Source of the DNA: Alphaproteobacteria bacterium
GTDB taxonomy: Bacteria > Pseudomonadota > Alphaproteobacteria > CALKHQ01
Length of the DNA stretch: 64,000 nt
Assembly: GCA_965227515.1 (NCBI GenBank)
Contig: CBDDFZ010000002.1
Span: 1,184,001 to 1,248,000 of the forward strand
Reading direction: 5' to 3'
The translations under genes and the position numbers were made by a program. The notes beneath the pieces are model-generated. The model had not been told where the DNA came from and did not search any database. It worked only from the letters and a program-made list of their open reading frames with translations. Shown here in pieces: positions 54,165 to 56,892 of the stretch (its first letter is position 1; the number at the start of each line of letters is the position of its first letter).

Positions 54165-54207
54165 CTGCAGGTCTACCCGGTCGGCAGCGGCTTTCACCCT
54201 CGCCAAT

Positions 54208-54345
54208 TGTCATCCTCGGCCGGAGCCCAAGTACATCTACTTGGGCGGAGCGCCGGGGATCCATTGCGCCGCTCGCGCGATGACAACGATGGATCCTCGA
54301 CGCGACGCGGCGAACAAGTTCGAACCGCGCCGGTCAAGGATGACA
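54208..54345. repeat. TGTCAT-type REP-like doublet
   Basis: TGTCATCCTCGGCCGG...GGGGATCCAT...ATGGATCCTCG...GGATGACA. Confidence 0.7.
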
Positions 54346-54383
54346 AGGGGGGTAGTGGCGGGCACTGAGTCTGCCGAGGCAAT

Positions 54384-54467
54384 CGTAGCCCGGGTGGAAC
54401 GGCGTGAAACCCGGGGACATACCTTCACCTCTCTGTGCCCCGGATTGCGCTGCGCTCCATCCGGGCT
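54384..54467. repeat. GTAG-family REP doublet; second REP is split by IS110
   Basis: CGTAGCCCGGGTGGAACGGCGTGAAACCCGGGG...CCCCGGATTGCGCTGCGCTCCATCCGGGCT, continuing as ACG at 55888. Confidence 0.88.
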
Positions 54468-54499
54468 TCTGTAACGGGCCATTGTTGGTCAATCCCTTT

Positions 54500-54731
54500 T
54501 TCGTCGTCCCGGCGCCTGGGTCATGCTTCTGTACGGGGTCGGCGCAGGGCCGCCGCCAAGATGGATATGCGAGGATCGGTCGGTCCAATCTACGGAAGCG
54601 TGCTCTCATGCGAGGCGACATCCCGGATGGCGGCCTGACCTGATCCATCGTCCCGGCGCGGGACGGCGCTTGACGGGCCGGTGTCGGTGCCCGTCGAAGC
54701 TCGTGTGTCGGTTCTCCTTATGCCGCGGCCA
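54500..54731 (-). ncRNA. Predicted bridge/seek RNA of the IS110 element; boundaries approximate
   Basis: Two internal loops carrying CCATCCGGG and CGTAG (target) and CCATCTT and TACAGAAG (donor junction), framed by stems. Confidence 0.8.
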
Positions 54732-55775
54732 TCATGCTGTCGCCATCGCCGGGCGCACCGGTCCGGCATGGTTGAACGGTGTGCCGTCAACCCACATCCG
54801 GTGCATGATGACGGCGAGCCGGCGCGCCAGCGCGACCTTCGCCTTCCTCATGCCCGCACGCCTGGCCAGCTTCATCGCCCAGCTCTTCAGCCAGCCGCCC
54901 TCGATCGGCCGGGTCAGAACCACGTGCGCCGCCTCATAGAGGGCCGAGCGCACATCGGCGTCTCCTACCTTCGATATCCGCCCCATCACCTCGCTCTCGC
55001 CCGACTGGCGCTTGGTCGGCGTCAGGCCGAAGTGCGCACCCACCAGGCGCGACGAGGCAAACCGCCCGGGGTCGTCCACTCCCGACAAGTAGGTCAGTCC
55101 GACAATGCTCCCCACGCCCGGCACCGTCATCAGCAGGCGAGCGCGATCGTCGGCCTGCGATGCCGCTCGGACCTGCCGGTCCAGCGCCGTGAACGATAGC
55201 AACAGGCCATCGCGTGCCGACAGCAGCGCCCCCGCCACCGCCTCCAGTACCGGATGCCCCGCCACAAGCTCCGAAATACGTGTCGAAAAGCTGCGCCTGG
55301 TGGTGTGCCCTACCTTCAGCCCGAAGTTCCGCAGCTGACCACGAAGGTGCATCTCAAGATCGTGCAGCTTCGCGCGGAGCTGGTCGCGACCCTTCAAAAG
55401 GGCCCGCATCTCCTGGGCCGCCAAAGACTTGCAGTGAACCGGCCGAAACCAGCCCACACGCATCAGCTGAGCAATCCCGCGTGCGTCCGAGCGGTCCGAC
55501 TTCACCGGCATCGTCGAAAGGGCTCGCGCAACATGACGCGTCTCCAGCAACTCAACCGAAAGACCGCCCTCGCTACATCCCCGCACAAGCCATTGCGACA
55601 ACGGCCCCGCCTCAAGACCAATCCGCTCAACCGAAATCCCCAAAGACCCAAACCACAACAACAAACCCGCCGGCGTGCTCGCAATACGAGCCTCGCAGAC
55701 AATCCCGCCCGCGCCGTCAACAACGCACACCGATGACCATTCCAAAGAAACGTCAATCCCGGCATAGTAGTTCAT
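54732..55775 (-). CDS. IS110-family recombinase/transposase
   Basis: DEDD motifs GIDVS, GLEAG, KSDRSDA; VPGVG; RQSGE catalytic Ser; ALARRLAVIMHRMW. Confidence 0.95.
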   Translation of the reverse strand: MNYYAGIDVSLEWSSVCVVDGAGGIVCEARIASTPAGLLLWFGSLGISVERIGLEAGPLSQWLVRGCSEGGLSVELLETRHVARALSTMPVKSDRSDARGIAQLMRVGWFRPVHCKSLAAQEMRALLKGRDQLRAKLHDLEMHLRGQLRNFGLKVGHTTRRSFSTRISELVAGHPVLEAVAGALLSARDGLLLSFTALDRQVRAASQADDRARLLMTVPGVGSIVGLTYLSGVDDPGRFASSRLVGAHFGLTPTKRQSGESEVMGRISKVGDADVRSALYEAAHVVLTRPIEGGWLKSWAMKLARRAGMRKAKVALARRLAVIMHRMWVDGTPFNHAGPVRPAMATA

Positions 55776-55905
55776 GGTCGTCTCTCCTCGATGTCTTGGA
55801 GCGGCAAACCCGACTCCGTGTATGACACCGACATCTTGAGGGACGACCACTCATGCAAGCCACCAAACGAGGGCCGTTAGCCCATCTACGCAGTCAGCAG
55901 CGGGC

Positions 55906-56892
55906 TCAACCGTCCCCCGGCCACGGGCCGGCCTGGGCCTCCAGCGCCTCATAGTCGATATCGGGCTCATGCACCGCGCGGATACGGGCGAACTCCCGGC
56001 CCTTGACCAGCGCGGTCAGCGCGCGGTTGTAGGGCACGTCGATCCCCAGCGCCTCTGCCTCGCGCACCAGCGCGCCGTTCAGCGCATTGATCTCGGTCCG
56101 CCGCCCGGCGTCGACATGCTGCTGCATCGACGGGCGCGAGAACTTGGTCCAGCAATGCCGCTTGATGGTGCTGCGGATGTCCTTGTCCGGGATGTCGAGC
56201 CCCTTGGCGGCAACCACGGCGAGCGCCTCGTCGATGATCCGGTCCTGGAAGTCGTTCACATCGGGCTGCCGGGCCAGTTCGCCGAGCCGGAGCCCGGTCG
56301 CGGCGCAGATCGGGTTGATGGCGATGTTGAGCAGGAACTTCTGCCAGATCACCGCCATGATGTCGGGGCTGATGGAGGTGGGAAAGCCTGCCGCATCCAG
56401 CATCGCCTTCACAGTCGCGGCGCGGTCCGTTGACCGCCCGTCCAGTTCGCCGATGGTGGTGGGGCCCTGGTGGGTCTGGGTCACCTGGCCCGGTCCGCGC
56501 ACCATGAAGCTGGACATGCTGGACCCGCCCAGCACCCGCGCCGCGCCGAGCACCTCGACCAGCGCCTCGACATTGCCGATGCCGTTCTGCAGCGTCAGCG
56601 CGAACCCGTCCGGCGCCAGCACCTGTGCCGCGGTCATGGCGGCATCGGCGCTGTGGTTGGCATCGACCGTCACGATGGCGAGGTCGGCGGGCGGCGCCTC
56701 GGCGGGGTCGGCGTAGGCCGCCATCGCGACCGTGTGCGCGCCCGGTACGCCGTCCAGCCGCAGCCCGTCGCGGTTGATCGCCGCGACGTGGTCGGCCAAC
56801 ACATCGATCAGTGTCACGTCGACACCGCTCAACGCCAAGCGCGCGCCATAGCTGCCGCCCAAGGCCCCCGCGCCGATCACGCATACCCGCAT
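55906..56892 (-). CDS. Ketopantoate reductase family protein
   Basis: IGAGALG, LQNG, WQKF..N, SMQQ..RTE...LNG. Confidence 0.88.
   Translation of the reverse strand: MRVCVIGAGALGGSYGARLALSGVDVTLIDVLADHVAAINRDGLRLDGVPGAHTVAMAAYADPAEAPPADLAIVTVDANHSADAAMTAAQVLAPDGFALTLQNGIGNVEALVEVLGAARVLGGSSMSSFMVRGPGQVTQTHQGPTTIGELDGRSTDRAATVKAMLDAAGFPTSISPDIMAVIWQKFLLNIAINPICAATGLRLGELARQPDVNDFQDRIIDEALAVVAAKGLDIPDKDIRSTIKRHCWTKFSRPSMQQHVDAGRRTEINALNGALVREAEALGIDVPYNRALTALVKGREFARIRAVHEPDIDYEALEAQAGPWPGDG

Follow-up and report, generated by a model that had tools for sequence, protein, structure and literature searches.

In the 64,000-nucleotide (nt) stretch of DNA that we analyzed (from an Alphaproteobacteria bacterium, contig CBDDFZ010000002.1; hereafter, the window), minus-strand positions 54468 to 55887 in all likelihood hold an active-looking insertion sequence (IS) of the IS1111 group, within the IS110 family, whose two-loop guide RNA targets the GTAG head of a repetitive extragenic palindrome (REP). 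This reading is carried by the anatomy of the element, the family and motifs of its protein, 20 site-specific insertions in the host genome, the covariation of its guide segments with targets and element ends, and the covariation of the RNA helices. A first-pass annotation of the same DNA had proposed an IS110/IS1111 element whose guide RNA is directed against a GTAG REP, and family, layout, the sites of all 20 copies and covariation all agree with that proposal.

The insertion sequence, its recombinase and its insertions into REPs

Read directly from the window, the IS measures 1420 bp. On the plus strand, the left flank CCATCCGGG (54457-54465) is followed by CT (54466-67) and then by the element, which starts with TCTGTAAC (54468), stops with GCCCATCT (55887) and is followed by ACG (55888-90). 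Excision in silico rebuilds CCATCCGGG-CT-ACG from the flanks, as the first-pass annotation had foreseen when it stated that removal of the element restores the target. All 20 full-length copies in the host genome align across element bases 1-1420 (90-100% identity) and their flanks diverge immediately beyond, which fixes the ends of the element. So delimited, the whole IS (54468..55887, minus strand) includes the core dinucleotide once, at the end that is left in the transposase sense (AG; plus-strand CT at 55886-87).

The transposase gene, tnp (54732..55775, minus strand; ATG at 55775, stop at 54732), lies between a short left non-coding end of 112 nt upstream (55776..55887) and a long right non-coding end of 264 nt downstream (54468..54731), all on the minus strand; a longer non-coding region downstream of tnp is the layout described for the IS1111 group (PMC11187229). 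At the left end, the terminal extension AGATGGG(C) (55880-87) comes first and the left subterminal inverted repeat (55862-55879) next, and the AGATGG start is shared by the homologs with an identified left end (30 of 33 loci). The right subterminal inverted repeat (54472-89) overlaps a conserved TTGACC (54487-92), giving a combined feature at 54472..54492. The two repeats form an 18-nt pair with 72% complementarity, in which the core TAACGG(C/G)CC matches at 8 of 9 positions, and the terminal extensions are 7-8 and 3-4 nt long, depending on the repeat start chosen. In the published description of the group, subterminal repeats are usually 11-13 bp long and perfect or near-perfect, and the asymmetric extensions measure about 7 and 3 bp.

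The gene encodes a 347-aa IS110-family recombinase. Residues 5-150 match Pfam PF01548 (DEDD_Tnp_IS110; E 9.6e-13), a match to PF02371 (Transposase_20) reaches E 2.4e-20, and the protein scores 235.4 bits against the NCBIfam equivalog NF033542, "IS110 family RNA-guided transposase" (cut-off 140). The C-terminal domain aligns with the recombinases of IS621 (8wt6) and ISCro4 (9t56), such that GLTPTKRQSG (residues 250-259) lies over GLTPRRYESG of IS621; the IS621 alignment by sequence covers this domain only (E about 1e-10). Both the length and this motif fit the IS1111 group, for which transposases of 330-350 aa and a GL-P----S(t)G motif are described (PMC11187229). In IS621, the catalytic residues are S241/G242 together with a RuvC-like site formed by D11/E60/D102/D105 (PMC11208158), and the predicted counterparts here are S258, G259, D8, E55, D94 and D97. 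The four acidic residues fall in the motifs GIDVS, GLEAG and SDRSDAR, and were equated with those of IS621 by motif pattern and a weak alignment with ISCro4, not by structure. An uninterrupted tnp open reading frame and the catalytic motifs are kept in all 20 full-length copies.

The host genome (two contigs, 5.5 Mb) contains these 20 full-length copies and one internally deleted copy. Compared with the window copy, 13 full-length copies are 98.7-100% identical, six about 96-97% and one 90%. Every one of the 20 is located at the site nGT-AGCCYGGRTG, between the GT and the AG of a REP GTAG head, in a single orientation, and in every case the 3' flank, AGCC(C/T)GG(A/G)TG..., is the start of a 30-nt palindrome. 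The 5' flanks beyond ...nGT differ among copies, which marks them as separate insertions. Uninterrupted GTAGCCNGGNTGN sites number 123 in this genome, which with the 20 interrupted ones makes 143, and the palindrome is visible in the flanks; this agrees with a REP, a short imperfect palindrome with a GTAG head that recurs in many intergenic copies. In the window, the body of the interrupted REP occupies 54438..54467 (minus strand), with the other two bases of the GTAG head at 55888-55889. At a distance of 40 bp, the CCCGGGTG variant of the REP is present uninterrupted and in the opposite orientation (54385-54416, plus strand), so the IS occupies one arm of an inverted REP pair.

The internally deleted copy (C1:998355-999179, loci L021/L022) is ~89% identical and lacks element bases 712-1300, so that tnp is without its C-terminal half and the RNA region without its target loop; its match to the covariance model described below is weak (59.9 bits). 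We also inspected contigs of four sequencing runs of DNA or unknown type (X1-X4), in which uncovered parts are uninformative. In run X1, word depth across 54200-56150 was 258.6 for the IS versus 11.5 for its flanks, and this about 20-fold ratio agrees with roughly 20 copies. A search of plasmids for near-identical DNA yielded no match, and the transposase was found at E <= 1e-60 in none of three genomes of the same family.

Guide segments and their covariation with targets and element ends

Four guide matches, all exact on the minus strand, lie within the 264-nt end in the order target 1, target 2, donor 1, donor 2, each at the position at which the first-pass annotation had placed it. Target guide 1 (left target guide, LTG; CCAUCCGGG, 54622..54630) is complementary to the nine REP nucleotides after the core (DNA match CCATCCGGG). 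Target guide 2 (right target guide, RTG; CGUAG, 54590..54594) has the sequence of the 3 nt just before the insertion point joined to that of the AG core, and so complements the other strand. Donor guide 1 (left donor guide, LDG; CCAUCU, 54559..54564) complements the first 6 nt of the left end, with the DNA match CCATCTT running from 54558, and donor guide 2 (right donor guide, RDG; UACAGAAG, 54526..54533) matches the terminal 6 nt of the right end followed by the core (DNA match TACAGAAG). IS1111 seekRNAs are reported to carry the complement of the top strand 5' of that of the bottom strand, opposite to the order of the IS110 type (PMC11187229); the window element agrees with the IS1111 order.

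The 20 copies fall into two sub-lineages that differ by one base of target guide 1, which ends in ...CCGGG in the 13 closest copies (G-guide) and in ...CCAGG in the other 7 (A-guide). The A-guide variant is also represented by a 1438-nt contig of run X3 (54624 C>T). The T-variant of the REP (AGCCT...), which makes up 45 of the 143 REP sites overall, hosts all 7 A-guide copies versus 2 of the 13 G-guide copies (Fisher exact p = 4.6e-4). Conversely, 9 of the 13 G-guide copies reside in fully complementary CCCGGATG sites, of which the genome has 27 among the 143 (binomial p about 1e-4). The remaining sub-lineage differences inside the RNA are confined to hairpin loops or turn a C-G pair into U-G. 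As judged from these sequences, the sorting of G- and A-guide copies among REP variants is what a base-pairing guide predicts. The two G-guide copies in T-variants would form an rG-dT wobble pair, so that tolerance of rG-dT at target position three is suggested by these natural insertions (2 of the 13 G-guide copies); likewise, rU-dG at the sixth target position appears to be tolerated (10 of 20 copies). A single change of a guide base has redirected one sub-lineage to a REP variant, amounting to natural reprogramming, and the two sub-lineages together provide a small natural data set on tolerated wobble mismatches.

One may ask whether these matches are a mere by-product, that is, captured pieces of REP and element ends that have no guiding role. 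REP-like sequence is common in this genome, given its 143 sites, and when the mononucleotides of the 264-nt end were shuffled 200,000 times, the 9-mer alone arose in 551 cases, as such an origin would allow. The same shuffles never produced all four matches in order (0 of 200,000); moreover, the matches occupy unpaired parts of a covarying structure, a one-base guide difference sorts the copies between REP variants, and homologs with unrelated targets show the same pattern. We therefore regard a by-product as barely credible.

A scan of one genome per species returned 75 related loci, the best of which, from uncultured Alphaproteobacteria, encodes a protein with 68% identity; the best plasmid-borne relatives, from Methylocystis, also reach 68% protein identity. 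Homologs at 38-68% protein identity carry the same scaffold just 3' of the gene, with different guide segments. From these 75 loci and the 20 own copies, 22 loci with placeable ends entered the guide tests, leaving out, among others, truncated genes, missing flanks, unplaceable ends and most further copies from genomes already sampled. For target guide 1 versus the reverse complement of the 3' flank, the longest match averaged 7.5 nt and reached at least 8 nt in 14 of 22 loci, as opposed to a mean of 3.75 and 2 of 444 in cross-family controls. Similarly, the run of identity between target guide 2 and the 5' flank beside the core averaged 2.86 and reached at least 3 in 11 of 21 loci, as opposed to 0.51 and 10 of 383 in controls. 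Individual loci illustrate this relationship: in locus L045 the guide AAUCCGCCC faces GGGCGGATT, in L046, a second copy in the same genome, AACCCGCCC faces GGGCGGGTT, and in L058 a 9-nt second guide is identical to the 5' flank. Among 19 loci outside the seed alignment, 6 of which lacked a resolvable right end, matches of 7-10 nt were seen by eye in 9 of the 13 others. In distant loci (L061, L063, L064, L072, L078, L103, L071, L085 and L111), the match of target guide 1 continues through the core (...CT); in the window element and its closest relatives it halts before the core, where only the U can pair.

The donor guides were compared with the element ends by eye. In 20 of the 22 loci, donor guide 2 finishes with the 7 nt that make up the right end plus core, and this holds across four right-end variants (ACAGAAG, AGAGAAG, AGCGAAG and AAAGAAG); donor guide 1 tracks the left-end variants ATGGTG (L047) and ATGCCG (L062 and L092). 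The test is weaker than that of the target guides, as the ends vary little in this clade, with four variants on the right and three on the left. Overall, the guides change with both flanks and element ends, which is the homolog comparison that the first-pass annotation had called for.

These comparisons also bear on the proposal that the target is chosen without RNA, either by a protein that reads the REP hairpin or by a single-stranded DNA end of the element that pairs with the target, as in IS200/IS605. REPs do form hairpins and are bound by other proteins, and the G-T wobbles described above are equally possible in DNA-DNA pairing. Against this stand the homologs with non-REP targets, which keep the scaffold and change the guides along with the target, and the recombinase family itself, for which RNA guidance has been demonstrated biochemically and structurally. 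In addition, the nucleic acid that co-purifies with the transposases of ISEc11, ISPa11 and ISKpn4 is reported to be RNase-sensitive and DNase-resistant (PMC11187229). Target choice without RNA is accordingly very improbable in our view, and RNA guidance is the reading retained here.

Predicted structure of the guide RNA and proposed mechanism

The predicted bridge RNA (long seekRNA) spans 54493..54676 on the minus strand, the limits being those of a covariance model for which this segment is the sole match in the window (cmsearch, 152.5 bits). Three helices define its scaffold. The outer helix P1, which we found by inspection, pairs 54652..54664 with 54506..54520 and encloses both the target and the donor parts; both-sided changes occur in 11 of its 13 pairs, and both strands were placed by a hand check and the covariance-model alignment. 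P2 (54631..54646 with 54573..54587; 10 of 12 pairs compensatory) closes the target-binding loop. It contains the stem GGATC-A-GGTC / GACC-GATCC (54637-46 / 54573-81) and extends inward by GG/CC and CCG/UGG, so that guide 1 begins exactly at the helix end. Within the target loop lies a variable inner hairpin, CTC-GCAT-GAG (54602..54616), which has an equivalent of other length and sequence at the corresponding place in homologs. Between the donor guides lies the P3 hairpin, CGGCG/CGCCG (54540..54555), in which 5 of 5 pairs are compensatory and 99% of cells are paired. All of these features are on the minus strand, and the target-closing stem, the inner hairpin and the donor hairpin were each present as the first-pass annotation had drawn them.

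RNAalifold applied to 22 sequences recovered P2 and P3, both with compensatory changes. As the first MAFFT alignments misaligned the outer helix and locus L060, the P1 pairs were set by hand from the window sequence, and a covariance model was built from P1, P2 and P3 and then used to realign the sequences. The model matches 46 of 51 sources (the window, two variants from its own genome and 48 of the 75 related loci), always on the strand of the gene and just 3' of tnp. In the resulting model-based alignment, 86.7% of cells are paired, versus 70.4% in shuffled sequences and 31-49% with slid partners, and compensatory (both-sided) changes are found in 26 of 30 base pairs. The many G-U pairs place the structure on the transposase-sense strand.

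Searching the host genome with the model gave 21 matches, every one inside a copy of the window IS; a separable RNA module, such as ssr9 of ISPpu9, was consequently rejected, as none of the 21 is a solo RNA copy. In one homologous locus (L057), two identical RNA matches (2286-2474 and 2539-2727) lie 253 nt apart and the opening of the non-coding region recurs beyond the first right end, as if the right end had been partly duplicated in tandem or in nested form. Two further features recur in closer homologs, namely, an AGGAGA-like motif directly past the tnp stop codon (54711-20, minus strand) and, 3' of it, a hairpin with an ACACC-containing loop (54669-99, minus strand). Lying 5' of the modelled RNA, they might mark a site of processing or belong to the long RNA.

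By analogy with published work on IS621, ISEc11 and ISPa11, from which we infer RNA production, recombinase binding, a circle stage, a junction promoter and the catalytic chemistry, the element most likely operates as follows. The 347-aa DEDD/Ser recombinase would be guided by an RNA of about 185 nt from the downstream non-coding end, in which P1 encloses the target-binding loop (closed by P2) and a donor-binding part. In the target loop, CCAUCCGGG would pair with one REP strand 3' of the insertion point, and CGUAG would bind the opposite strand 5' of that point and over the AG/CT core. In the donor part, CCAUCU and UACAGAAG, flanking P3, would bind the excised circle where its right and left ends are joined. 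The element would thus leave its site as a circle, the RNA would be bound by a recombinase tetramer, S258 would cut beside the AG/CT core, and strand exchange at the core dinucleotide via a phosphoserine intermediate (S258) would place the element between GT and AG. TTGACC lies 19 nt from the right tip, and TTGAC is conserved at 19-20 nt in 22 of 24 aligned homologs. At a circle junction, this candidate -35 box would be followed by a 17-nt spacer and by GAAGAT spanning the junction, and could form a promoter from which tnp and the RNA are expressed as one transcript.

A different division of labor has been considered for the donor part. A short seekRNA of ~75-95 nt (P2 and its loop) could be the sole guide, with the element ends recognized by the protein via the subterminal repeats; the resemblance of CCAUCU and UACAGAAG to the ends would then have another use, or one in the excision step only. 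For ISEc11, an abundant 82-nt seekRNA alone is reported to support transposition, and the same paper calls the function of the 145-170 nt form unknown (PMC11187229); the subterminal repeats, a hallmark of the IS1111 group, are present in the window element as well. What speaks against such an arrangement is that donor guide 2 tracks four right-end variants and donor guide 1 two left-end variants, and that the compensatory changes throughout P3 and in most of P1 are hard to explain with a non-functional 3' half. Moreover, donor-complementary loops were marked in IS1111 bridge RNAs by Durrant et al. (PMC11208160). We consider a short guide acting by itself unlikely, and the comparison of homologs supports the presence of a donor-binding part within the long RNA of the clade to which the window element belongs.

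Several observations weigh against the overall reading of an active-looking, RNA-guided element. The subterminal repeats (72% over 18 nt) are less perfect than the published 11-13 bp description. Contigs of the four runs show neither a circle junction nor an empty-site joint; a promoter scan of the linear element found no sigma-70-like promoter, and the candidate junction promoter consists of a -35 box and a weak -10-like GAAGAT only. Folded as a single sequence, the RNA is no more stable than shuffled versions (z = -1.1), and its structural support hence comes from the comparison of homologs, not from energy. The pair counts, in turn, derive from an alignment fitted to the model and so lean toward the proposed structure. 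Rfam 15 gave no match for 54200-56100 at E <= 1, a collection that may hold no model of an IS1111-type bridge RNA. Target guide 1 does not pair with the core C in the window element, and the first guides of five homologous loci (L049, L073, L110, L081 and L091) do not fit their present 3' flanks; these could have been mobilized in trans by the RNA of a sister copy, or could have drifted after insertion.

Comparison with known IS110-family systems

RNA guidance of IS110/IS1111 elements was published in 2024, and the kind of element described here is already on record, in that RNA guidance in the IS1111 group and REP targeting by ISPa11, ISPpu9 and IS621 have been reported. For 93% of IS1111 entries, a bridge RNA has been predicted in the right end (PMC11208160), and natural reprogramming among IS1111 relatives has been reported (PMC11187229). 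No protein above 68% identity occurs in the collections searched, so that the window element is probably an unnamed IS.

The element leaves the known working of IS110/IS1111 elements unchanged, and adds a well-documented natural example to a class of RNA-guided recombinases that is under development as programmable DNA-insertion tools. In annotation, the 264-nt end should be entered as the gene of a guide RNA, and each of the 20 loci as a REP insertion. The covariation of the outer helix and the donor guides has a modest bearing on the function of long seekRNAs, which is stated to be unknown in the IS1111 literature. A bolder view would take P1, spanning both parts, as the mark of a distinct structural variant of the IS1111 bridge RNA in this alphaproteobacterial clade, in which the long seekRNA is a complete two-loop bridge RNA and the element a highly active, compact programmable ortholog; we put this forward tentatively, as a possibility with the odds against it.

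IS621, an IS110-group element of E. coli, is said to insert into REPs, a report ascribed to Choi et al. (2003). Its recombinase (8wt6) and that of the window element share a DEDD RuvC-like domain and a Tnp domain with the catalytic Ser-Gly, and the predicted RNA of the window element resembles that of IS621 in having two loops and four guides that overlap a CT core (PMC11208158, PMC13626964). Upon circularization of IS621, a junction promoter is formed (PMC11208158, PMC13626964). In contrast to IS621, in which the RNA is encoded upstream of tnp, the RNA of the window element is encoded downstream; this position, together with a CT core opposite the tnp strand, results in the reversed guide order reported for IS1111 elements. 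The window element further differs from IS621 in having a long outer helix that encloses both guide parts, and subterminal repeats.

In P. putida KT2440 (Pseudomonas putida), the IS110-family elements ISPpu9 and ISPpu10 reside in REPs, as the window element does, and a strong hybrid promoter arises in ISPpu10 circles (PMC12288879). The small-RNA module downstream in ISPpu9, ssr9, is separable, occurs as solo copies and is dispensable for transposition, whereas the covariance model found no solo copy of the window RNA in the host genome.

ISEc11, also of the IS1111 group, is similar in size to the window element (1443 bp versus 1420 bp). Movement of ISEc11 depends on its downstream non-coding region, a long and a short RNA (about 150 and 82 nt) are made, and the circle junction creates a promoter that presumably transcribes tnp together with the long RNA (PMC11187229). 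The junction promoter of ISEc11 is known, whereas that of the window element is suggested by TTGAC at 19-20 nt from the right end. The targets also differ, ISEc11 recognizing a short linear sequence and the window element a REP.

Among IS1111-group elements, ISPa11 of Pseudomonas aeruginosa likewise targets a REP, and its seekRNA co-purifies with the transposase (PMC11187229). Compared by description, not by sequence, it differs from the window element in its host clade and in the REP that it enters. What the two have in common is a non-coding region downstream of tnp, a fixed position within the REP, and a guide order in which the complement of the top strand lies 5' (PMC11187229).

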